Assembly: GCA_964594965.1 (NCBI GenBank)
Contig: CAZQMX010000001.1
Location: forward strand, 25,667 to 89,666
Source: an uncultured Candidatus Saccharibacteria bacterium
Lineage (GTDB): Bacteria; Patescibacteriota; Minisyncoccia; Portnoybacterales; UBA2143
DNA length: 64,000 bases
Reading direction: 5' to 3'
The notes beneath the pieces are model-generated. The model had not been told where the DNA came from, searched no databases, and saw only the letters and a program-made list of their open reading frames with translations. A program made the position numbers and the translations under genes. This document shows, in pieces, positions 10,649 to 59,567 of this stretch. Position 1 is the stretch's first letter. The number at the start of each line of letters is the position of its first letter.

Positions 10649-11236
10649 ATGAATAAGATTGATAAAAGATTAAAAAAAATAAAAGAAGAAGTTATTGAAT
10701 GCCAGAAATGTCCTTTATCTAAATCCAGAACTCTGCCTGTTATTGGACGGGGTAATCATCAGGCAAATATTGTTTTTATTGGCGAAGGCCCGGGATTTAA
10801 TGAGGATAAAACCGGTGTTCCTTTTTGCGGACAAGCCGGCAATATTTTGGATGAACTTTTTAATTCAATTAAATACCAGAGAAAAGATGCTTATGTCTGT
10901 AATATTCTAAAATGCCGACCGCCTAATAATCGCAACCCGGAGAAAAATGAAATTGAGGCCTGTACGCCATATTTAGAAAAACAGGTTAAGATTATTCAGC
11001 CAAAAGTAATTGCAACCATGGGTAATTACGCAACATCATTTATCCTTGAAAAATATGGATTAAAGGATAAGATAGAAGGCATTAGCAGAATTCACGGAAA
11101 AGTTTTTCAGACAGAAGGAATGAAAATTATTCCTCTTTATCATCCGGCGGTAGCAGTTTACAACGCTAATATGAAAGAAACGCTTAAAAAAGATTTTAAG
11201 ATTTTGTCTGAAACTTTGAGCGCGGAGCGCGAATAA
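10649..11236 (+). CDS. uracil-DNA glycosylase, family 4
   Basis: CxxCxL at the N-terminus and GEGPGxxED/GxPFxGxAG motifs. Confidence 0.7.
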   Translation: MNKIDKRLKKIKEEVIECQKCPLSKSRTLPVIGRGNHQANIVFIGEGPGFNEDKTGVPFCGQAGNILDELFNSIKYQRKDAYVCNILKCRPPNNRNPEKNEIEACTPYLEKQVKIIQPKVIATMGNYATSFILEKYGLKDKIEGISRIHGKVFQTEGMKIIPLYHPAVAVYNANMKETLKKDFKILSETLSAERE

Positions 11237-15695: not shown

Positions 15696-15708
15696 CTAGA
15701 AATACTTA

Positions 15709-15778
15709 GTCATTCTGAACGAAACGAAGTGGAGTGAAGAATCTTTTTTACAGATCCTTCGCTAACGCTCAGGATGAC
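15709..15778 (-). repeat. MITE-like palindromic element, copy B (minus orientation)
   Basis: GTCATTCTGAAC...GAAGAATCT / AGATCCTTCGCT...CTCAGGATGAC. Sits 14 nt upstream of the trpS start. Confidence 0.7.
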
Positions 15779-15787
15779 AAAATAAGT

Positions 15788-16516
15788 TTATTTTTTATCT
15801 AATTTTTTAAAAGTTTTGATAATAGGTGAGAGATCACCGTCAATAATTTTATCCAAATTATGCCAGGATTTCTTAATCCGATGGTCAGTAATCCTGTTTT
15901 GCGGAAAATTGTATGTTCTGATTTTCTCTGCCCGCATGGCCATACCAATCTGTCCCTTTCTTTCATCGCCCCGTAGGGCCAGATCTTCTTCTCTTTTTTT
16001 AGCCAAAAGGCGAGCCCGCAGAACATTCATTGCTCTTTCCTTGTTTTGTTGTTGGGATCTTTCTTCCTGACAAGTAACCATTATTCCGGTCGGAGTATGA
16101 ATAATTCTAACAGCTGATTCAGTCTTATTAACATGCTGGCCACCCGGCCCAGAAGCTCTTAAAACATCGATCCTAACATCCTTTGGATTAATCTTTATTT
16201 CAGTTTCAGTTGCTTCTTCTAAAACAGCGACCGAAGCAGTTGAAGTATGGACTCGGCCTGATTTCTCTGTAGTTGGAACGCGCTGGACCCGATGAACTCC
16301 GCCTTCGTATTTTAACTCTTGATAAGCATTTTCTCCCTTTATTTCAAAAACAATTTCCTTGTAGCCGTTTAATTCAGATTGACTACTATTAATTAAAAGA
16401 GTTTTCCAGTTTTCCTTTTCAGCAAAGCGGGAATACATTCTAAAGAGGTCGCCAGCGAAAATGGCTGCTTCTTGTCCGCCGGCACCAGCTCTGATTTCAA
16501 TAATTACACCCTTCAT
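15788..16516 (-). CDS. prfA: peptide chain release factor 1, lacking the N-terminal domain 1
   Basis: GGQ motif and an RF1-type PxT tripeptide (PTT). 242 aa, beginning at the domain-2 sequence [11 protein letters not shown]. The upstream sequence encodes L31, not the missing domain. Confidence 0.7.
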
Positions 16517-24649: not shown

Positions 24650-24688
24650 ACCTCTTCCAAAACAATCCTTTCTACTCCAGATTAAATA

Positions 24689-24794
24689 TTTTGGCTGCAA
24701 ATTGTTCAAACCTCGTCGCCTATACACTAGTATAAGCTCCTCCCTTTTCACAATTTTCGCTCAAAATCTTTAATCTTCGTAACGAAAAATTATC
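24689..24794 (+). promoter_or_regulatory. conserved promoter/leader module upstream of mltG (paralogous to 54797..54902)
   Basis: ATATTTTGGCT...TATACACTAGTATAAG...TTTTCGCTCAAAATCTTTAATCTTCGTAACGAAAAATTATC. An imperfect palindrome can form an AATTTTCG/CGAAAAATT stem. Confidence 0.5.
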
Positions 24795-24808
24795 TTGAAA
24801 GAGGTCTT

Positions 24809-27559: not shown

Positions 27560-27567
27560 CTATTTAT

Positions 27568-27660
27568 CCAAATCTTGATTTGGTAGTAAATAGTTATCCT
27601 GAGGAGCAAAGCGACGAAGGATCTATAACTAACAGATTCTTCGCTAACGCTCAGAATGAC
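27568..27660 (+). repeat. CCAAATCTTGATTTGG hairpin plus MITE-like element, copy C
   Basis: GTTATCCTGAGGAGCAAAGCGACGAAGGATCT / AGATTCTTCGCTAACGCTCAGAATGAC. Between the rplL stop and the ATG at 27680. Confidence 0.7.
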
Positions 27661-28861: not shown

Positions 28862-28890
28862 TTGACATGCCTAATAAAGTAGCATAAAAT
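28862..28890 (+). promoter_or_regulatory. putative sigma-70 promoter of the mraZ/dcw operon (TTGACA, 17-nt spacer, TAAAAT)
   Basis: Consensus -35 with canonical spacing, about 200 nt upstream of mraZ. Confidence 0.5.
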
Positions 28891-28988
28891 GGGTATGAAG
28901 TGAATGATTGTGGATAAAAGTGGGGATAAGTATATAAAATTGTGGATAACTGACTATTTTGTCTTAATCTTTGATTCAGATACAAAAT

Positions 28989-29525: not shown

Positions 29526-30443
29526 ATGCACCAGCCTGTCCTTCTAAACGAAGTTCTAAAATATCTTAATCCAGAATCAAACCAGGACTTTATTGACTGC
29601 ACTTTTGGCTGGGGAGGCCATTCTTTAGAAATACTAAAAAGAAACAAACCCAATGGTAAGGTTTTAGGAATAGAACGAGACAAAAAAGTTTTAGAGATTC
29701 TAGAAAAGGAAAGAAATGAAAAAAGATTAATTTTGGTTAATAATAATTTTTCTGACTTAGAGAGAATTGTTCAGGAAAATGAATTTCTGTCGGTTAACGG
29801 AATTCTCTTTGACCTGGGATTATCTTCCTGGCAAATAGAGAAAAGCGGAAAGGGATTTAGTTTTATGAGAGATGAACCACTTTTAATGAATTATGAATCA
29901 GGAATTAGGAATCAAGAATTAACAGCCGCGACAATCATCAACCAGTGGAGTAAAGAAGATTTAGAACAAATACTAAAAGAATACGGAGAAGAAAGATATG
30001 CCAGAAGAATAGCCCGAAAAATACATCAGAGCAGACAAAAACAGAAAATTGAAACAACTGGCCAATTAGTTGAAATTATTAAAAAAGCAGTTCCAATTAA
30101 TTATCAAAGAAGAAGAATCCCCCGAAAAAAAGCAAGCTTTTCACGGGGCAGGCATTTTGCAACTAAGACATTTCAGGCGTTAAGAATTGCGGTTAATGAC
30201 GAATTAAATAATCTGGAAAAAGCTCTTCCCCAAGCATTAAAGATTTTGAATAAGAAAGGTCGAATAGTAATTATCTCTTTCCACTCTTTAGAAGACAGAA
30301 TTGCTAAAAACTTTTTTCGTCAGAAAGCCAGAGAAGGGGAATTAGAAATTTTAATAAAAAAGCCCATTAGGCCAAGTCAGGAAGAAATTAAATTAAATCC
30401 TCGCAGCCGAAGCGCTAAATTAAGAGCGGCTGTGAAAATATAA
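29526..30443 (+). CDS. rsmH: 16S rRNA (cytosine1402-N4)-methyltransferase RsmH (MraW)
   Basis: HQPVLLNEVL...DCTFGWGGHS signature. Confidence 0.85.
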   Translation: MHQPVLLNEVLKYLNPESNQDFIDCTFGWGGHSLEILKRNKPNGKVLGIERDKKVLEILEKERNEKRLILVNNNFSDLERIVQENEFLSVNGILFDLGLSSWQIEKSGKGFSFMRDEPLLMNYESGIRNQELTAATIINQWSKEDLEQILKEYGEERYARRIARKIHQSRQKQKIETTGQLVEIIKKAVPINYQRRRIPRKKASFSRGRHFATKTFQALRIAVNDELNNLEKALPQALKILNKKGRIVIISFHSLEDRIAKNFFRQKAREGELEILIKKPIRPSQEEIKLNPRSRSAKLRAAVKI

Positions 30444-30774: not shown

Positions 30775-32495
30775 AAAAAGATTGGCGGATTCATCTTCTA
30801 GTTATTATCATTTTCCTGATTGGGAGCGGGGTATTAACCCGCTTGTTTTCTCTCCAGATTTTTCGTTATGACTATTACAGCGCCTGGGCCAAAGACCAGC
30901 ATGAACTTTATCAAGAATTGGTTCCTCAACGGGGAGAAATCTTTATGCAGGATTTCTCAGCCAAGAAGAGAAATAATCAGAACCAGTATTATCCTTTGGC
31001 AATTAACAAGGAATTCCAACAAGTCTATGCTATTCCCCAGGATATTGACCAGGACAAAACAGAGGAAATATCCGAGAAACTCTCTTCTCTTATTGATTTA
31101 GATAAGGAAATAATCTTGAGCCGGATTAGCAAGCCAGATGATCCCTATGAACCATTAAAACATAAAATTAGTCAGGAGATTGCCAATCAGGTAGAAGAAC
31201 TTAATATTTCCGGAATAAAATTAGGGCCGGAAATCTGGCGGTATTATCCCAATGACGAATCAACCTGTCATTTAATCGGTTTTGTTGGCATGAGCGAAAA
31301 AGGAGACATTGGCCAATATGGATTAGAAAGATATTATCAGGATGAATTAGGAGGCAAGGCTGGTTTTATTGCCGGGCAAAAAGATACTGCCGGCTATTGG
31401 ATTCCTTCTTTGAGAGAAGATTTAGAACCAGCCGAAGACGGAGCCGATATTATCCTGACCATTGACCAAAATATCCAATTCAGGGCAGAAAGAGAATTAG
31501 AGAGAGTTATAGAAAGATGGCAGGCAGAAGCCGGGACAATTATTGTCCTTGAACCGGAAACCGGGGCAATCAGAGCAATGGCCAATTGGCCAACCTTTAA
31601 CCCAAACCAATACATGAAGGTTGAAGAAATTGATTCTTTTCTTAACCCTTCGGTCCAGAAAGTTTATGAACCAGGTTCTGTTTTTAAGGCCATTACCATG
31701 GCAGCCGGATTGGACAGCGGTAAAATTACTCCGGAAACAACCTATTACGATAAGGGAAGAATAACAATTAAAGGAAGTTTTATCAGTAATGTTGATGGCA
31801 GAACCTATGATTACCAAAATATGACTCAAGTTCTTGAAAAATCAATTAATACCGGGGCAGTTTTTGTCCAACAAGAAATTGGTCAGGAGATTTTCGCTGA
31901 CTATGTCCAGAGATTCGGCTTTGGCCAGACAACCGGAGCCGATTTAATCGGAGAAGTCAACGGCAATATCTCCAATCTTTTTACTGGTCGGGAAATCAAT
32001 TTAGCCACAATTTCATTTGGCCAGGGAATTACCGCTACGCCCTTGGGAATGCTTTCTGCTGTTGGGGCAATTGCTAATCAGGGAAAACTAATGCGTCCTT
32101 TTGTTGTTGAAAAGACAATCTGGCCGGATGGCAAGGAAGAAACCACCCAACCAGAAGTATTAAGGGAAACAATTTCTTCTCAATCAGCCAGGGAATTAAC
32201 CAAAATGCTTGTCAGCGCCGTTGAAAACGGCTATGGTAGACCTGCCCGGATTAGCGGCTATGATATTGCCGGCAAGACCGGTACAGCCCAGATAGCTGAT
32301 TTGGAAAAGGGCGGCTATACCGAAGAAACCATTCATAGCTTTATTGGTTACGCCCCTGCTTTTGACCCTAAGTTTGCTATTTTAATAAAGATTGATAAGC
32401 CCCAGGGTATTCGCTTTGCTTCTGATTCAGTTGGTCCGGTTTTCAGGGAATTAGCTGAGTATATTATTAACTATTTAGAAATACCTCCAGAGTAA
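30771..32495 (+). CDS. ftsI: penicillin-binding protein (FtsI/PBP2-type transpeptidase)
   Basis: SxxK (GSVFK), SxN-like and KTGT motifs, with an N-terminal TM helix. Confidence 0.8.
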   Translation: MKKDWRIHLLVIIIFLIGSGVLTRLFSLQIFRYDYYSAWAKDQHELYQELVPQRGEIFMQDFSAKKRNNQNQYYPLAINKEFQQVYAIPQDIDQDKTEEISEKLSSLIDLDKEIILSRISKPDDPYEPLKHKISQEIANQVEELNISGIKLGPEIWRYYPNDESTCHLIGFVGMSEKGDIGQYGLERYYQDELGGKAGFIAGQKDTAGYWIPSLREDLEPAEDGADIILTIDQNIQFRAERELERVIERWQAEAGTIIVLEPETGAIRAMANWPTFNPNQYMKVEEIDSFLNPSVQKVYEPGSVFKAITMAAGLDSGKITPETTYYDKGRITIKGSFISNVDGRTYDYQNMTQVLEKSINTGAVFVQQEIGQEIFADYVQRFGFGQTTGADLIGEVNGNISNLFTGREINLATISFGQGITATPLGMLSAVGAIANQGKLMRPFVVEKTIWPDGKEETTQPEVLRETISSQSARELTKMLVSAVENGYGRPARISGYDIAGKTGTAQIADLEKGGYTEETIHSFIGYAPAFDPKFAILIKIDKPQGIRFASDSVGPVFRELAEYIINYLEIPPE

Positions 32496-32626
32496 AAAAA
32501 TAACCAATCACCAAGATACAAGATACAAACAAATCTCAAACATCAATAATCAATCACCAAAAATTAATTTATTTGATTATTGATTATTATTTGGTTATTG
32601 TTTCTTGTTTCTTGATTATTTGAAAA
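32496..32626. repeat. AT-rich imperfect palindrome built from 7-nt periodic repeats (CAAGATA... / ...TTTCTTG)
   Basis: The left arm has heptamers ending in CAA. The right arm has heptamers TTGATTA/TTTCTTG, which are their reverse complement. Confidence 0.55.
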
Positions 32627-33895
32627 ATGCGTAGCATTTTACAATATATTCTAAAAATTCTGGCTAAAGTAGTCCTATATCGGTACAAACCGGAAATTGT
32701 TGCTGTAACCGGTAACGTTGGCAAAACCAGCACCAAAGAAGCTATTGCCCAGGTTTTAGAAAAATTCTTTCGGGTCAGACAAAACAAGAGGAATTACAAT
32801 AATGAGATTGGAGTGCCTTTAACAATAATTGGCTTAGAGACCGGCGGGAGTTCATTAATTGCCTGGTTGAAAAATTTTTTACTCGCTCTTAGAACAATTT
32901 TATGGAGAGGTGATTATCCGGAAATTCTGATTCTGGAGATGGGCATTGATAAGCCCGGAGATATGGAATATTTAATGAGTTTTATCCCGGTTGACGTCGC
33001 CGTTATCACCGCTATTGGAGAATTTCCTGTTCATCTTGAATTTTTCCCTGGAAAAGGAAAATTGGTTCAAGAAAAAGCCCTTTTGGCTAAATCACTTGAC
33101 GGAGAAGGCCAGGTGGTTCTAAATTACGATGATTTATCTGTTCGGGCGATTGGCGATGAGTTGCCCGAGGGATTAAAAAAGATTCAATACGGATTTGGTC
33201 AGGCAGCGAATTTAAGAATTATGAATTATGAATTAGGAATTAGGAATTTAGAAAAAAAAGATTTTGGCATAAGTTTCAAATTAGAATATGGAGGAAGTAT
33301 TGTCCCGGCCCAGATAAAGGGGGCAACCGGAAAACAACATGCCTTTGCCCTTGCCGCTGCCGCCGGAGTTGGATTGTATTTCGGCCTTAATCTGGTTGAG
33401 ATTTCAGGAGCTTTCAAAAAACATAGATCCTTACCCGGCCGAACCAACCTCTAAAAAGGAATTAAACAAACCTGGATTATTGATGATAGTTACAATGCTT
33501 CGCCTTTGGCAACTTTAGCTTCTCTGGAAATTCTAAACCAATTTTCAGAAGGAAAAAGAAGGAGAATTGCAGTCCTGGGTGATATGCTTGAATTAGGGAG
33601 CAAAACCGAAGAAGGTCATCGCCAAGTTGGAAAAAAAGTAAAAGAAACTGCTGATTTGCTTTTTACTGTTGGCAGCCGGGCTATCTTTATCGCTGACCAA
33701 GCCAGAAAAGCAGGAATGAAAAAAGAAAATATTTTTGAGTTCCAGACCTCAAAACAAGCCGGACTAGCAGTCCAAAAACAACTAATCAGCCAGGATATTA
33801 TTCTAGTTAAAGGGTCGCGCTCAATCCATACGGAAGAAGTTACCAGAGAAATTATGGCTCATCCGGAAAAAGCCGATGAATTGTTGGTAAAATAA
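32627..33895 (+). pseudogene. murF: UDP-MurNAc-tripeptide--D-Ala-D-Ala ligase MurF interrupted by a single in-frame TAA at 33452-33454
   Basis: Mur ligase P-loop TGNVGKTSTKE in ORF 1. DDSYNASP and the C-terminal domain are in ORF 2, which is in the same frame. The spacing GR-(14 aa)-DDSYNA matches intact MurF if the stop is read as sense. This may be a sequencing error or a genuine nonsense codon. Confidence 0.6.
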
Positions 33896-46767: not shown

Positions 46768-46865
46768 CTAAATCTCTGATTTAGTTTAAAATAGTCATCC
46801 TGAGGGCGAAGCCCGAAGGATCTATGGCAAAGAAAAGATAGATTCTTCGCTTCACTCAGAATGAC
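46768..46865 (+). repeat. CTAAATCTCTGATTTAG hairpin plus MITE-like element, copy E
   Basis: GTCATCCTGAGGGCGAAGCCCGAAGGATCT / AGATTCTTCGCTTCACTCAGAATGAC, ending 9 nt before the dnaK ATG. Confidence 0.7.
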
Positions 46866-46874
46866 ATCGGCAAT

Positions 46875-54771: not shown

Positions 54772-54796
54772 TAACCTTTCTACTACAATTCCCATA

Positions 54797-54902
54797 TTTT
54801 GGCTACGACTTTGCAAAAATTTCTTGATGTATAGTATACATCTGCGAAATTTCTGCTTCGTCTCGCTCAAAATCTGAAAATTTCGTAGCGAAAATTATTA
54901 TC
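54797..54902 (+). promoter_or_regulatory. conserved promoter/leader module upstream of the dacB-like gene (paralogous to 24689..24794)
   Basis: ATATTTTGGCT...TGTATAGTATACAT...TCTCGCTCAAAATCTGAAAATTTCGTAGCGAAAATTATTATC. Confidence 0.5.
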
Positions 54903-54923
54903 TAAAAGAGCTCAAGAGCAAAT

Positions 54924-55913
54924 ATGTTGCTTAAATTCATAATTGCCACCTCGGTTATTTTTAATTCCCTGACTTCTTTAATTGATAATGTTGCCCCTCC
55001 TCAGGTTTTTTCTGATTTACCCGAATATTATTCCAGGAAAGAAGTTAAAGTCAAAAAACTTCCCCTTTCACCGGACCCGCCTGTCGGCGAGACAGGTTGG
55101 CAGTTTCAAAAAGCTGCCCTTTCCGCCATTAAACAGGCCAAACCTAATTTTTATCCAATCCGGGACTGGGGGATTGAATCTCTTGAAGTCGAAGCCAAAG
55201 CAGCTTTAATCTTTGACTCAGCCAAAGATAAAGCCCTTTACCAAAAAGAATCAGATTTAGTTTTACCGATTGCCAGTTTAACTAAAATAATGACGGCTTT
55301 GGTTGTTCTGGAGAATATTGATACTGAAGAAATTGTCCTTATTTCTGAAAAAGCTATTGCCGGATATGGAGACAGGGGCGGATTGGTTCTTAATGAAGAA
55401 ATCAGTGTTGAAAATCTCTTACATGCTCTTTTAATGGAATCAAGCAATGATGCCGCTTATGCTTTGGCAGAAGCAGTTGAATTAAAAACAGAAAGAAACT
55501 TTATTAATTTAATGAATGAAAAAGCCAGTCAATTAGGTTTTGAAAAAACTAGTTTTACTGACCCGAGCGGATACGAATCAAGTAATGTCTCAACGGTTAA
55601 TGAATTAGTCCAATTGGTTGAGTATAGTTTTGGAGAATCCCTGATTTGGCAGATTATGAAAACACCGATGATTGAGAAATTTTCTGTTGATAGAGGAATC
55701 CGTCATTTCTGGACAAACACCGACAAATTATTGGCTCGTTTAGATAATGTTGTTGGAGGAAAAACCGGCTATACCGAAGAAGCCGGCGGTTGCCTGATTC
55801 TGGTTATTAATCATAATGGAGGGAATTTAATTAGTGTTGTCTTGGGAACAGAAGAAAGGTTTTTAGAAACCGAAAGATTAATTAATTGGGTCCAAGAGGC
55901 CTACTCCTGGTAA
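54924..55913 (+). CDS. D-alanyl-D-alanine carboxypeptidase (S11, PBP5/DacB-like)
   Basis: SxxK (ASLTK), SxN (SSND) and KTG (GKTGYT) motifs, with a signal-anchor N-terminus. Confidence 0.65.
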   Translation: MLLKFIIATSVIFNSLTSLIDNVAPPQVFSDLPEYYSRKEVKVKKLPLSPDPPVGETGWQFQKAALSAIKQAKPNFYPIRDWGIESLEVEAKAALIFDSAKDKALYQKESDLVLPIASLTKIMTALVVLENIDTEEIVLISEKAIAGYGDRGGLVLNEEISVENLLHALLMESSNDAAYALAEAVELKTERNFINLMNEKASQLGFEKTSFTDPSGYESSNVSTVNELVQLVEYSFGESLIWQIMKTPMIEKFSVDRGIRHFWTNTDKLLARLDNVVGGKTGYTEEAGGCLILVINHNGGNLISVVLGTEERFLETERLINWVQEAYSW

Positions 55914-56022
55914 AATTTCTAATTTTTAATTTCTAATTTCTAAACAATTTCTAATGATTTAATTATTAAATTAATAAATTAAAGAATTGTTTGAAAATTG
56001 AAAATTGATAATTGAAAATTAA
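55914..56022. repeat. inverted arrays of 7-nt periodic repeats (AATTTCT x4-5, then GAAAATT x4)
   Basis: Read directly. The left array is AATTTCTAATTTTTAATTTCTAATTTCT. The right array GAAAATTGAAAATTGATAATTGAAAATT is its approximate reverse complement. Confidence 0.6.
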
Positions 56023-57075
56023 ATGCTTATGCCTGATATATTTTTTATCTCAAGAATCATGGGATTAGGAGCAATTTCTTTTCTTTTTGCTTTGGCCTGG
56101 ACGCCCTTCTTGGTTCGTTTTCTTGAAAAGTACAAAATGGGCAAGCAAATCAGGACAGAGGGGGTCCCATACTTCGCCAAACATCACAGCAAGAAAGAGG
56201 GGACTCCAACCATGGGCGGAATCTTAATTTGGATGACAGTTTTGTTTTTAACCCTGCTTTTCTGGATTTTAGCTAAAGCCGGGGACGGAACAATTCTTCA
56301 AAACTTTGATTTCTTGACAAGGAAAGAAACTCTTCTTCCTTTGGGCGCCCTGATCGCCTCGGCCTTAGTTGGTTTAGGGGATGATTTGCTGGGAATTTTT
56401 AAGATTGGTTCTAGTGGCGGCGGGCTTAAAATCCGCCATCGTCTTTTAATCTATACCGCTATTGCCGTTTTCGGCGCCTGGTGGTTTTTTGTTAAGTTGG
56501 AATGGGATTTGGTCCATGTTCCTTTTCTGGGAGATTTTAATATCGGTCTTTGGTATATTCTCGTTTTTATCTTTGTTTTAGTTGCGACTGCTTTTTCAAC
56601 AAATCAAACCGATGGACTTGATGGATTAGCCGGCGGGATTCTTTTAATTGGTTTTGCTTCTTACGGGGCGATTGCCTTTTCCCAGGGCAAAATGGATTTA
56701 GCTGCTTTTTGCGGAGTAATTATTGGGGCCCTATTGGCCTTCCTCTGGTTTAATATTTACCCAGCCAGATTTTTTATGGGTGATACCGGGTCAATGTCAT
56801 TGGGAATTACCCTGGGCATTATTGCCATGCTGACAAACTATTTTCTTCTTCTTCCTTTAATCTTTTTTATTCCGGTAGTAGAATCGGTTTCGACTGCAGT
56901 CCAGATGCTTTCAAAAAAAATCAGAAAGAAAAAAATATTTCTTTCGGCGCCTATTCATCATCATTTTGAAGCTAAAGGATGGCATGAGACAAAGGTGACT
57001 ATGCGTTTCTGGATGATTAATGGAACCATGGCGGTGATAGGATTAATTCTTGTTTTTATTGAAGTAATCATTTAG
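56023..57075 (+). CDS. mraY: phospho-N-acetylmuramoyl-pentapeptide transferase MraY
   Basis: DGLDGLAGG and PIHHHFE motifs. Confidence 0.85.
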   Translation: MLMPDIFFISRIMGLGAISFLFALAWTPFLVRFLEKYKMGKQIRTEGVPYFAKHHSKKEGTPTMGGILIWMTVLFLTLLFWILAKAGDGTILQNFDFLTRKETLLPLGALIASALVGLGDDLLGIFKIGSSGGGLKIRHRLLIYTAIAVFGAWWFFVKLEWDLVHVPFLGDFNIGLWYILVFIFVLVATAFSTNQTDGLDGLAGGILLIGFASYGAIAFSQGKMDLAAFCGVIIGALLAFLWFNIYPARFFMGDTGSMSLGITLGIIAMLTNYFLLLPLIFFIPVVESVSTAVQMLSKKIRKKKIFLSAPIHHHFEAKGWHETKVTMRFWMINGTMAVIGLILVFIEVII

Positions 57076-57120
57076 GGCTTTCTCTAAAATTTCTGCGAAA
57101 TTTTAGCTAGAAAACCTTTA

Positions 57121-57219
57121 CCCCGCCCCCTATACTCTGACTCAATCATTAGAGAATTATACATAGAAACAGATTATCCGTATTATCAAACAAGAAATCA
57201 GAGTAAAGGGGGCGGGGTG
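57121..57219. repeat. 99-bp element bounded by 20-bp GC-rich terminal inverted repeats (CCCCGCCCCCTWTACTCTGA)
   Basis: Left arm 57121-57140, right arm 57198-57219, one mismatch in 20. The only C5GC5 run in the window. Confidence 0.55.
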
Positions 57220-57286
57220 CTCAATGTTGTAGCTAAATTTATTTCGCTACACTTGAGTTTCGCTCATAAATTTAGACAACATTCGC

Positions 57287-58381
57287 ATGAAAGTCCATCA
57301 ACCAGACTATTTTTTCATCTCAGCTGTTTTTGTTCTGGTTGTTTTTGGTTTAGTTGTTTTATCAAGCGCTTCGGTTGTCATTTCCCAGGAAACCTTTGGA
57401 GAAAATTACTATTTCCTCAAGCACCAGCTTATTTACGGCCTTTTAATTGGATTAGTTGCTTTTTTTGTTGTTCAGAGAATTAATTACCGCTTTTGGCAGA
57501 AACTAGCTTTTCCTTTAATGATTTTGGGTTTAATTCTTTTGGCGCTGGTTTTTCTGCCGGGAATAGGATATGGCCATGGAGAAGCCAAACGTTGGATAAG
57601 TTTAGGTCCCTTTTCTCTTCAGCCCTTTGAATTTATTAAATTAAGTTTTGTTCTTTACTTGGCAGCGCTCTTGAGTAGAAGAGGGGAAAGCAAAGAGGTA
57701 ATTAAAGAGAGTTTAATTCCTTTTCTGGTCAGCTTTGTTGTTATTAGCATCCTGGTTCTTTTCCAGCCCAATATGAGCGCTTTTATCTTAATTTCTTTAA
57801 TTGCCGGCCTAGTATATTTCCTGGCCGGAGTTAAGTTTTCCTATTTAATATCATTAGGGGTATTGGCTTTATCCAGTTTTTTTGTTTTAATAAAGGTAAC
57901 ACCTTATCGGATGAGAAGGTTAACGGTATTCCTCCATCCGGAGATTGATCCGCAGGGGATTGGCTATCAGATTAATCAGGCCCTTTTGGCTATTGGTTCA
58001 GGCGGTCTTTTCGGATTAGGTCTGGGGCACAGCATCCAAAAATGGAAATACCTGCCGGAAGTTATTGGTGATTCCATTTTCGCCATTATCGCTGAAGAAC
58101 TTGGATTAATTGGGGCTGGTCTTCTGGTTGGTTTATTCATCTTTCTGTTCTGGCGGGGATTAAAAATTGCTAAAAACGCTCCTGATAAATTTGGCTATCT
58201 TTTAGCTGGTAGTATTACGGGCTGGCTCTTCTTTCAGGTTTTTATCAATATTATGGCAATCTGTGGAATGATTCCTTTAACCGGCATGCCCTTGCCTTTT
58301 ATCAGTTACGGCGGTTCTGCTTTAGCGATTTCTCTGGCAGCGGTTGGTATAGTAACTAATATTTCTAAGTATACAAACTAG
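57287..58381 (+). CDS. ftsW: cell division/peptidoglycan glycosyltransferase FtsW (SEDS family)
   Basis: 10 TM helices and SEDS motifs. Sits in the dcw cluster. Confidence 0.8.
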   Translation: MKVHQPDYFFISAVFVLVVFGLVVLSSASVVISQETFGENYYFLKHQLIYGLLIGLVAFFVVQRINYRFWQKLAFPLMILGLILLALVFLPGIGYGHGEAKRWISLGPFSLQPFEFIKLSFVLYLAALLSRRGESKEVIKESLIPFLVSFVVISILVLFQPNMSAFILISLIAGLVYFLAGVKFSYLISLGVLALSSFFVLIKVTPYRMRRLTVFLHPEIDPQGIGYQINQALLAIGSGGLFGLGLGHSIQKWKYLPEVIGDSIFAIIAEELGLIGAGLLVGLFIFLFWRGLKIAKNAPDKFGYLLAGSITGWLFFQVFINIMAICGMIPLTGMPLPFISYGGSALAISLAAVGIVTNISKYTN

Positions 58382-58460
58382 AATAATGAATAATGAATCA
58401 CGAATAAGGAATAGATTTAATTCTTGATTCCTAATTCTTAATTCTTAATTCTGATTCCTA
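58382..58460. repeat. inverted arrays of 7-nt periodic repeats (GAATAAT... / ...ATTCTTA)
   Basis: GAATAATGAATAATGAATCACGAATAAGGAAT | ATTCTTGATTCCTAATTCTTAATTCTTAATTCTGATTCC. Confidence 0.6.
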
Positions 58461-59567
58461 ATGAGAATAGTATTTGCCGGTGGCGGCACTGGCGGACATA
58501 TTTATCCGATTATTGCCGTAGCCAGACAATTAAAACAGGGACAAATACCCTTGGAAATGTTCTTTCTTGGACCAGTTGGTCCTTATCGTCAGGAACTGGA
58601 AAAAGAGGGGATTATTGTCAAGTCGGTCCTGGCCGGAAAATTAAGAAGATATTTTTCCATTTGGACAATTTTGGATATTTTAAAGTTTCCTCTTGGTCTA
58701 ATTCAATCTCTTTGGTATTTGTTTATCCTAATGCCGGACATTGTTTTTTCCAAAGGGGGATACGGCAGTGTTCCGATTACCCTGGTCTCCTGGACATATT
58801 TCATCCCAATCATTTCTCATGAATCAGATGCTGTTCCGGGTCTGGCTAATCGCATTGGAGCATTTTTTTCAAAAAGAATTGCTCTTTCATTTCAATCGGC
58901 CGGGAAGTATTTTTCTTCTAAAAAAACTGCTTTGGTTGGTAATCCAATCCGTTCAGAGATTGCCCAGATTTGTCTTTCAACTGATTCTCAAGAAAAAGAA
59001 AAAGGCAAACAACTTTTTAGCATTTCCGGTCAAAAGCCAATTATTTTGATTTTAGGCGGCAGTCAGGGGGCAGAGAAAATTAATCGATTGGTCTTATCCG
59101 TTTTGCCCAGTCTCTTGGAGAAATATGAGGTTATTCATCAATCCGGGCCAAAAAATTATGAGAAGATAAAAAGCTGGTTAAAGCAAATGCCGGTTAATTA
59201 CCATCTCTTTCCATTTTTGGATGAAAACCAGATTGCCCACGCCTATCTTGTTTCTAATCTAATCATTTCCCGGGCCGGAGCAGGAAGTATTTCAGAAATT
59301 GCCGCTTGCGGAAAGCCAAGCATTTTAATCCCAATTCCTAAATCAGCCTCTGACCATCAGAGAAAAAATGCTTTTGATTACGCTCGGGCCGGAGCAACAT
59401 CAGTTCTGGAACAGGATAATTTAACGCCTAATTTGCTCTTAAACGAAATATCAGAGATACTGGATAATCCGGAATTAGCCCAGAAAATGTCTTTGAATGC
59501 CAAGAATTTTTCCCGGCCCCGAGCCGCCCAAAAAATCGCAGAGGAAATAGTTGAGATGGGGAGGTAG
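58461..59567 (+). CDS. murG: UDP-GlcNAc--MurNAc-pentapeptide GlcNAc transferase MurG
   Basis: GGGTGGHIYP N-terminal motif and the GT28 C-terminal domain. Confidence 0.85.
   Translation: MRIVFAGGGTGGHIYPIIAVARQLKQGQIPLEMFFLGPVGPYRQELEKEGIIVKSVLAGKLRRYFSIWTILDILKFPLGLIQSLWYLFILMPDIVFSKGGYGSVPITLVSWTYFIPIISHESDAVPGLANRIGAFFSKRIALSFQSAGKYFSSKKTALVGNPIRSEIAQICLSTDSQEKEKGKQLFSISGQKPIILILGGSQGAEKINRLVLSVLPSLLEKYEVIHQSGPKNYEKIKSWLKQMPVNYHLFPFLDENQIAHAYLVSNLIISRAGAGSISEIAACGKPSILIPIPKSASDHQRKNAFDYARAGATSVLEQDNLTPNLLLNEISEILDNPELAQKMSLNAKNFSRPRAAQKIAEEIVEMGR

Follow-up and report, generated by a model that had tools for sequence, protein, structure and literature searches.

Contiguous heptanucleotide repeats, which Mazel et al. 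are said to have described in 1990 as the short tandemly repeated repetitive (STRR) sequences of cyanobacteria, have been known in bacteria since that year, and neither the reason for a unit of 7 nt nor a function has been established. We here analyzed such repeats in a 64 000-nt stretch of DNA (hereafter the window; GenBank assembly GCA_964594965.1, contig CAZQMX010000001.1, positions 25 667 to 89 666) from an uncultured, Parcubacteria/Portnoybacteria-like member of the Patescibacteria, or candidate phyla radiation (CPR), in which three spacers of the division and cell wall (dcw) genes are each a long imperfect palindrome of 7-nt tandem units. We regard it as about an even chance that these spacers are lineage-specific inverted pairs of STRR-like heptanucleotide arrays, derived from slippage and strand switching and tolerated at gene junctions, which would make them the patescibacterial counterpart of the heptamers of cyanobacteria, Beggiatoaceae and Xanthomonas.

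Heptanucleotide repeats are the over-represented class among the longer simple sequence repeats of many bacteria, with polymerase slippage as the proposed cause, as that work is quoted in two later papers (Mrazek 2007, via PMC4679880 and PMC4692102). In marine Beggiatoaceae, a single unit, TAACTGA, dominates throughout the genome, in 169 direct sets and only one inverted repeat (MacGregor 2015, PMC4679880); the same repeats occur in cyanobacteria and Bacteroidetes, and a translational role was proposed for them but not shown. The units GGGAATC of Xanthomonas and GGGGAYT of Nostoc are G-rich and form G-quadruplexes (Rehm 2015, PMC4692102) and, according to a preprint on Nostoc, heptamer repeats affect the expression of recO and recF (bioRxiv 10.1101/2022.06.06.494920). 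A limited literature search gave no paper linking heptamer repeats to Patescibacteria.

The window spacers share with the cyanobacterial STRR sequences a 7-nt unit in at least three head-to-tail copies, an excess of period 7, a mostly intergenic location often abutting or overlapping start codons, and the use of many different units in one genome; they differ in that the host is a streamlined member of the Patescibacteria with median junction spacers of 6–15 nt, and in that the arrays are short (4–6 units). Like the TAACTGA repeats of Beggiatoaceae, the largest class of which ends 1 nt before the start codon, the heptamers lie just upstream of start codons with a few inside open reading frames (ORFs), whereas here many units are found and inverted pairing is common. 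The Xanthomonas and Nostoc repeats are likewise intergenic heptamers that vary in length between strains, with some (few) inverted stem-loop pairs (PMC4692102), and the GAATC core of GGGAATC resembles the GAATCA and GAATTA units of the window; in contrast, the window arrays have a G+C content of only 11–23%, at which a G-quadruplex is impossible. Repetitive extragenic palindromic (REP) sequences, together with bacterial interspersed mosaic elements (BIMEs) and hairpin-forming REP doublets (REPINs), are also imperfectly palindromic and lie between the genes of operons, often in inverted pairs and with variation between strains (PMC3116915). They are, however, hundreds of near-identical copies of one 20–40-nt palindrome with a cognate REP-associated tyrosine transposase (RAYT), while the window palindromes are without common sequence and have an internal periodicity of 7 nt.

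A plasmid array tied the window arrays directly to the classical cyanobacterial heptamer repeats. The sole match to the murG spacer among 72 556 plasmid records was an approximately 165-nt array of ATTCCTG/ATTCTTA heptamers in an intergenic region of an Anabaena plasmid, with 90.7% identity to a murG-spacer arm over 43 nt. This array, at positions 74400–74562 of the Anabaena sp. WA102 plasmid NZ_CP011457 (304–466 of our locus L168), consists of ATTCCTG, ATTCTTA and ACTCCTG units and lies upstream of an HU-family gene. Among the plasmids, BLAST gave no match to either the mraY or the murF spacer, nor to a synthetic GAATNNN array, probably due to low-complexity masking. The GAATT-type unit in common with Anabaena suggests a common cause across phyla. 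The Anabaena array is nonetheless a single direct array, whereas just over half of the intergenic arrays studied here were inverted pairs, with the window palindromes filling the whole spacer as a predicted hairpin. The kind of repeat was already known; what is new is the patescibacterial host, the dominance of inverted pairs that fill the spacer, and a clean gain in the dcw operon compared with a sister species. In CPR genomes, which are ultra-small and streamlined and in which overlap of genes is the norm, the repeats are frequent and period-specific.

Structure and periodicity of the three spacers

Pfam scanning of ten proteins of the dcw region confirmed the gene names used here, with mraZ, rsmH, an ftsL-like gene and a penicillin-binding protein (PBP) transpeptidase gene followed by murF and, 20 kb beyond, a cluster of a D,D-carboxypeptidase gene (named dacA), mraY, ftsW and murG. 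The three spacers are those of dacA–mraY (from the TAA at 55911–55913 to the ATG at 56023), ftsW–murG (TAG at 58379–58381 to ATG at 58461) and PBP–murF (TAA at 32493–32495 to ATG at 32627). In each of them a 7-nt tandem array is followed by its approximate inverse, and the palindrome takes up the spacer from the upstream stop to the downstream start codon, with 3′ arms that stop 0–5 nt short of the ATG and with a unit sequence that is different in each spacer. All arms are given below as read on the plus strand, with copy numbers determined using Tandem Repeats Finder (TRF).

In the dacA–mraY spacer, the 5′ arm of the inverted pair (55914–55949) begins at the base after the dacA stop codon and has four to five AATTTCT units (4.3 copies at 55914–55943, 91% matches), while the 3′ arm (55985–56020), with four TTGAAAA/GAAAATT units (TTGAAAA in 4.3 copies at 55991–56020, 91% matches), ends 2 nt before the ATG at 56023; these 36-nt arms are 78% complementary. 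The centre between them (55950–55984), which would form the loop and apical part of the predicted hairpin, is almost pure A+T and carries AATTATTA repeats of period 8 (3.6 copies at 55953–55981). In alignment with the sister species (locus L004), it is the ATG at 56029, not that at 56023, that corresponds to its mraY start. In the ftsW–murG spacer, five GAATNNN units make up the 5′ arm (58380–58413, or 58381–58415 in a regular-expression scan; GAATAAT in 4.7 copies at 58381–58413), which overlaps the TAG stop codon of ftsW, and six ATTCTTN units, the reverse complement of which is again a (GAATNNN) array, make up a 3′ arm (58417–58462) that runs into the murG ATG (TTAATTC in 5.1 copies at 58417–58452, continuing to 58462). 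Here 26 nt of the arms (58380–58405 and 58420–58445) are 81% complementary. The PBP–murF spacer was the weakest of the three, with 49-nt arms that are 71% complementary; its A/C-rich 5′ arm (32498–32546) of CAAGATA and ..TCAA heptamers is more degenerate than the other arms (CAAGATA in 2.4 copies at 32512–32528), and its 3′ arm (32573–32621) of TTGATTA and TTTCTTG heptamers ends 5 nt before the murF ATG (TTGATTA in 7.3 copies at 32573–32620, 75% matches). Five of the six arms had period 7 with 4.3–7.3 copies, compared with only 2.4 for the 5′ arm of the murF spacer. The earlier note on this DNA had described the spacers as long imperfect palindromes of 7-bp direct repeats, with a period of 7 rather than 10–11, and TRF, arm pairing and lag tests bore out that description.

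Within the arms of the mraY and murG spacers identity was 84–91%, as compared with a complementarity between arms of 78–81%, which fits homogenization inside each arm. When unrelated heptamer arrays paired at random were used as the null, the complementarity of the arms was above expectation, but only modestly so (p = 0.049 for mraY and p = 0.033 for murG). As RNA, the spacers were predicted to fold into hairpins with a minimum free energy (MFE) of −16 to −27 kcal/mol, although the MFE structure made up only 1.5–3.8% of the ensemble, as for weak hairpins pairing in several registers. Compared with shuffled sequences the RNA folds gave z of −4.5 and −3.4 for two of the spacers, with the murG hairpin (z −1.5) being non-significant, and DNA folds gave z of about −2 to −2.9.

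The periodicity was specific for 7 nt. In a sliding test (28-nt segments with at least 80% identity at a given lag, and 30 local shuffles as the null), the window had six strong segments of period 7 but lacked any of periods 4–6 or 9–11, and the shuffles gave none at period 7. Identity at lag 7 reached 0.60–0.71 in only 3 of 32 intergenic gaps of at least 48 nt (0.60 being that of PBP–murF) and was at most 0.37 in the remaining gaps, so that the periodic arrays are not a generic feature of most intergenic regions, which the earlier note had named as a refutation. The three spacers were also the most A+T-rich gaps, with G+C fractions of 0.11–0.23 as compared with 0.25–0.49 elsewhere. In a comparison set of 1.12 Mb of loci around mraY from approximately 160 related genomes and metagenome contigs (Parcubacteria), there were 73 arrays of period 7, one of period 6, 15 of period 8 and five each of periods 9–11, and 100 kb of phage T4, used as a control of similar G+C content, had no period-7 array. 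The window sequence was identical in three independent assemblies (JGI, ENA and Logan), and the spacers are therefore not an assembly artefact.

Gain of the spacers and dynamics of the arrays

The sister species (CAZQUN01, loci L004 and L164) was the closest genome compared, with an MraY that is 97% identical and coding DNA of about 85–90% nucleotide identity. It had no spacer at any of the three junctions, which instead read TGGTAGtATG (dacA–mraY), TAAtATG (ftsW–murG) and an ATGA overlap (PBP–murF). Across 168 distinct dacA–mraY, mraY–ftsW and ftsW–murG junctions the median spacer was 6–15 nt, and distant relatives were mostly without a spacer. Since genes abut or overlap in the sister species and in most outgroups, the spacers were gained in the lineage of the window; judged from the sequences of both the sister and the survey this is so for dacA–mraY and ftsW–murG, and for PBP–murF it is so by the sister comparison only. 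In the comparison with related dcw spacers that the earlier note had proposed, the window spacers themselves were thus absent from the sister species, and period-7 arrays with inverted partners recurred throughout the clade. An essential dcw operon recently split by arrays in one species and not in its sister offers a natural before-and-after comparison, serving both the question of how the arrays originate and that of their effect on translational coupling. No intermediate states of the window's own arrays were recovered, either by a metagenome scan with MraY, in which the closest of the matches listed was 82% identical, or among DacA homologues, where no lineage fell between 88% and 100% identity.

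Among the related loci, 57 of 79 arrays lay outside long ORFs, and an inverted partner within 160 nt accompanied 26 of 48 distinct intergenic arrays as compared with 4 of 21 arrays inside long ORFs. Nine of 14 adjacent array pairs exceeded randomly paired arrays in complementarity at p ≤ 0.05, and of the 50 junction spacers with 40 nt or more, 15 had 7 as their best period (binomial p = 3e-6). The units varied by locus, with an approximately three- to four-fold enrichment of a self-complementary core: AATT was present in 27 of 69 units (10.2 ± 2.8 expected) and GAATT in 15 of 69 (3.5 ± 1.8 expected). Whole-unit variation in copy number between close strains was seen elsewhere in the clade, in the loci L101 and L102, which share 99.8% identity in the DNA flanking the array and 99.3% along the full aligned locus. 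Their sole indel there, of 14 nt, is exactly two units of a (CATGTAR)n array located directly 3′ of the mraY stop codon, and was the largest among 31 near-identical locus pairs. Of the options that the earlier note had listed for the spacers, slippage-prone sequence was accordingly the one that fitted best, with this two-heptamer difference occurring in the same clade.

The remaining two period-7 segments of the window are arrays of the murG-spacer unit family that lie in frame within genes, with five GAATNNN units on the plus strand of rsmH (29888–29922, encoding NYESGIRNQEL) and of murF (33216–33250, encoding NYELGIRNLE); together with both arms of the murG spacer, (GAATNNN)5 is found at four places in the window. 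The rsmH and murF arrays match at 30 of 33 nt, and an exact 20-mer, GAATTAGGAATCAAGAATTA, is common to rsmH and the 3′ arm of the murG spacer (minus strand, 58418–58437). The sister rsmH has 21 non-periodic nt where the window has 33 nt, and the sister murF has a segment of equal length with a different, weaker 7-nt periodicity, identical at 24 of 43 nt between flanks that are about 84% identical. Near-identical rsmH array DNA was present in three distant RsmH genes for which the protein identity was only 61–65%, indicating that the rsmH copy is probably old, and it may be the source of the other (GAATNNN) arrays. We infer from the pattern in rsmH, murF and the murG spacer that arrays have exchanged sequence, by ectopic conversion or template switching. 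The replacement at equal length in murF may resemble the small dispersed repeats (SDR) of Nostoc punctiforme, for which Elhai et al. in 2008 reportedly found 21–27 nt at new sites, often in heptamer-repeat contexts and without net change of length, although SDR are defined unique sequences and not heptamer arrays.

We also considered that the rsmH array had destroyed a DMRM motif, and rejected this, as IMNY or LMNY already takes the place of the motif in many relatives. RsmH has in addition an 11-residue insertion compared with the sister protein (PRKKASFSRGR, encoded at 30118–30150) in a second variable loop, which is not heptamer-periodic; similar basic insertions are present in some distant homologues. 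In murF, an in-frame TAA at 33452–33454, where the sister has TTA (Leu), gives ORFs of 275 and about 129 residues, as compared with the intact 422-residue murF of the sister. This could mean that murF is a pseudogene or a split gene, that the TAA is a sequencing error, or that it is read through.

Origin of the arrays and competing explanations

In the explanation that we put at an even chance, replication slippage of 7-nt units would make each arm grow and shrink, the inverse arm would be initiated at the palindromic AATT cores by strand switching or by fold-back priming, and ectopic conversion or template switching would exchange sequence between arrays. The inserts would then persist for the most part where they are least harmful, at gene junctions and in surface loops. 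In the polycistronic mRNA, a spacer of this kind is predicted to form a weak A+U-rich hairpin with several pairing registers, the base of which brings the upstream stop codon beside the downstream start codon, and this could be why the operon tolerates an insert of 80–130 nt between genes that were presumably once translationally coupled. Taken together we see the arrays as near-neutral or selfish repeat DNA that at most modulates expression, rather than as a dedicated regulatory site. Should they be slippage products only, there would still be a lesson for annotation, in that such spacers are not regulatory sites and in-frame arrays within genes are repeat-derived.

Several observations weigh against this explanation. 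The window's own arrays were invariant across the three assemblies and are not hypervariable. The distant locus L013 has the same unit pair at its dacA–mraY junction as the window, around an unrelated centre, while closer relatives are without it, which purely random local growth does not predict. The locus pairs L009/L015 and L067/L078 share spacers at 0.82–0.84 identity, as compared with 0.55–0.69 at third codon positions of the flanking genes, and in L024/L027 and L021/L025 the arms were kept around different centres; such conservation hints at constraint, though low complexity inflates the identities, and these persisting elements, together with L013, would to some extent allow for constraint or for insertion at preferred sites. 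The 20-mer common to rsmH and the murG spacer, which we had taken as proof of recent copying, had to be downgraded, a match of this kind not being very improbable given the unit frequencies of the family (about 0.1 by chance, as our own estimate rather than a computed value). Finally, no enzyme or process with a preference for 7 nt was identified, and slippage alone fails to explain why periods 6 and 8 are so much rarer.

A more far-reaching version, which we regard as doubtful, is that a sequence-biased process in Patescibacteria makes and disperses heptamer arrays with GAATT/AATT cores, shared with cyanobacteria and perhaps with Xanthomonas, and mediated either by a dedicated enzyme or by an unrecognized property of the replisome or of repair. 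Such a process would seed hairpin-forming inverted arrays at the stop/start junctions of essential operons and could overwrite loops of the essential genes rsmH and murF in frame; if it exists, the arrays would be a very small non-autonomous mobile DNA, and not a passive microsatellite.

That the spacers are instead selected cis-acting RNA hairpins in the dcw mRNA, functioning in processing or stability, as bridges for translational coupling or as thermosensor-like occluders of start codons, we hold to be unlikely. They do lie inside an operon, the predicted hairpin base juxtaposes stop and start codons with the 3′ arm running into the latter, two of the three folds were more stable than those of shuffled sequences, and elements common to species pairs were more conserved than synonymous sites, with their arms kept. 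Moreover, heptamer repeats abutting start codons affected recO and recF reporters in Nostoc (bioRxiv 10.1101/2022.06.06.494920), and a role as translational regulators has been proposed for the Beggiatoaceae repeats (PMC4679880). The spacers are, however, absent from the sister species and most relatives, the fold of the murG spacer was not significant, and neither an Rfam match (Rfam 15 at gathering score gave six tRNAs over the whole window and nothing in the spacers) nor the signature of a terminator was found. The suggestion in the earlier note of terminator structures was thus not supported either, since a terminator scan found a G+C-rich stem with a T-run in none of the three spacers. 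Selection on the sense-strand RNA, for which G-U wobble pairing was expected to favour the hairpin of the mRNA sense, was tried as a candidate and rejected, because the antisense strand folded as well or better; over 40 junction spacers the antisense fold was the better one in 28 and the sense fold in 11, with one tie (sign test p = 0.009; Wilcoxon p = 0.14). Absence of Shine–Dalgarno (SD) motifs in the spacers is uninformative here, as SD usage is weak genome-wide, with a loose SD-like motif in only 18 of the 64 window genes.

It also seems quite unlikely to us that the spacers are miniature mobile elements, i.e. hairpin DNA resembling miniature inverted-repeat transposable elements (MITEs), REP or REPIN, placed as units at junctions by a transposase acting in trans. 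Their presence in the window and absence from the sister species, exactly at stop/start junctions, would suit such elements, as would the recurrence of the dacA–mraY unit pair at that junction in the distant L013 and the (GAATNNN)5 arrays at four window sites. This genome also has small, structured intergenic repeats of at least three other families, and the four inserts that fall in aligned regions, from three families, were all absent from the sister. Inverted arms, as in a MITE, are indeed present, but the three palindromes have no common termini or centre, their units differ, and a second full-length copy was found neither in the window nor in the 1.1 Mb of loci, with the exception of L013 at the same junction. 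No recognizable target-site duplication was seen at the three junctions, the copies within genes are single arms, of which that in murF replaces sequence at equal length without insertion, and the change in whole-heptamer copy number, together with the higher identity within than between arms, points to local array dynamics. An origin by duplication of flanking coding sequence was likewise rejected: when the three window spacers were compared with the 200 nt that flank them on each side, similarity was not significant in direct or in inverted orientation, and a 15-nt stretch copied from the 3′ end of dacA was present in L013 only.

Very unlikely, in our judgement, are arrays of protein-binding sites, whether for a regulator, a nucleoid protein or a single-strand binder of the cold-shock type with an oligonucleotide-binding (OB) fold, each monomer covering about 7 nt. 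The strict 7-nt period, the enrichment of the single core (G)AATT throughout the clade and the occurrence of the unit family in Anabaena agree with this, and CspB binds heptamer repeats with one protein per unit, at least as reviewed in PMC4679880. Against it, a single genome has different units in its different spacers, conservation of the spacers does not extend to the sister species, and no candidate protein was identified. The earlier note had thought of iteron-like sites for a dimeric regulator, possibly MraZ. Such sites are not supported as conserved operators, given that the sister species has adjoining or overlapping genes in place of the spacers and that the unit differs for each spacer; iterons are moreover conserved direct repeats, typically of 17–22 bp and located by the gene of their binder, or sites at a conserved operator position, whereas the present unit is 7 bp. 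As for MraZ, the MraZ-box-like GTGG repeats were located before mraZ (28909–28950), as would be expected, and not in the heptamer spacers. A promoter scan of the spacers gave a single weak 9/12 match, at the background rate, and planar DNA curvature, another suggestion of the earlier note, would be disfavoured by A-tracts that recur every 7 bp, out of phase with the helical repeat of about 10.5 bp. Chance is next to impossible, for even though the spacers are 77–89% A+T and such DNA readily yields spurious repeats and palindromes, this explanation is already refuted by the gap, shuffle, period and T4 tests given above, with periodicity confined to 3 of 32 gaps, no arrays in shuffles, and periods 4–6 and 9–11 almost empty in the related loci.

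Other elements at dcw junctions and in the window

A structured insert of another kind was found at the dacA–mraY junction of another Parcubacteria genome (L008, 1523–1649), where a strongly folding, G+C-richer element of 127 nt carries GAGGTTCGACCTT motifs; different lineages have therefore received different structured inserts at one and the same stop/start junction. In the window itself, the mraY–ftsW gap holds a 211-nt insert (57076–57286) with an RNA fold z of −7.7 to −9.9, where the sister species has TAAtATG. This element, which has a 13-bp G+C-rich inverted repeat (ACCCCGCCCCCT and AGGGGGCGGGGT) and a AAATTTCTGCGAAATTT palindrome, is unrelated to the heptamer arrays. The GCGAAATTTCTGC motif was assigned to it, and the echo of a GCGAAATTTCTGC leader module that the earlier note had perceived in the AATTTCT units proved weak, the module being a separate repeat family.

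Two related intergenic elements of about 150 nt, at 24650–24808 and 54772–54923, share the blocks CCTTTCTAC..ATATTTTGGCT..TCGCTCAAAATCT..TTCGTARCGAAAA and are both absent at the orthologous junctions of the sister; the second of them holds the GCGAAATTTCTGC block described earlier as a leader module. A third small repeat family, found at 27590–27660, 46790–46870 and 15700–15790 (minus strand), is hairpin-forming and has the consensus GTCATCCTGAG..CGAAGGATCT..AGATTCTTCGCT..CTCAGAATGAC, with the copy at 27560–27655 being absent from the sister.

Upstream of mraZ, the region 28862–28950 contains the top promoter-like site of this region (TTGACA-17-TAAAAT, 11/12), and three GTGG(A/G)(T/G)AA direct repeats resembling MraZ boxes lie just 3′ of the promoter match, at 28909–28950. 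The mraZ ORF was listed as 206 residues, and its true start is probably later, as the sister MraZ has 143 residues. TATAAT-like boxes were also seen 5–11 nt before the ATG of several genes (e.g. at 10649, 36301, 45820, 61752 and 533) which, together with the scarcity of SD-like motifs, suggests frequent leaderless or SD-independent initiation in the window genes.

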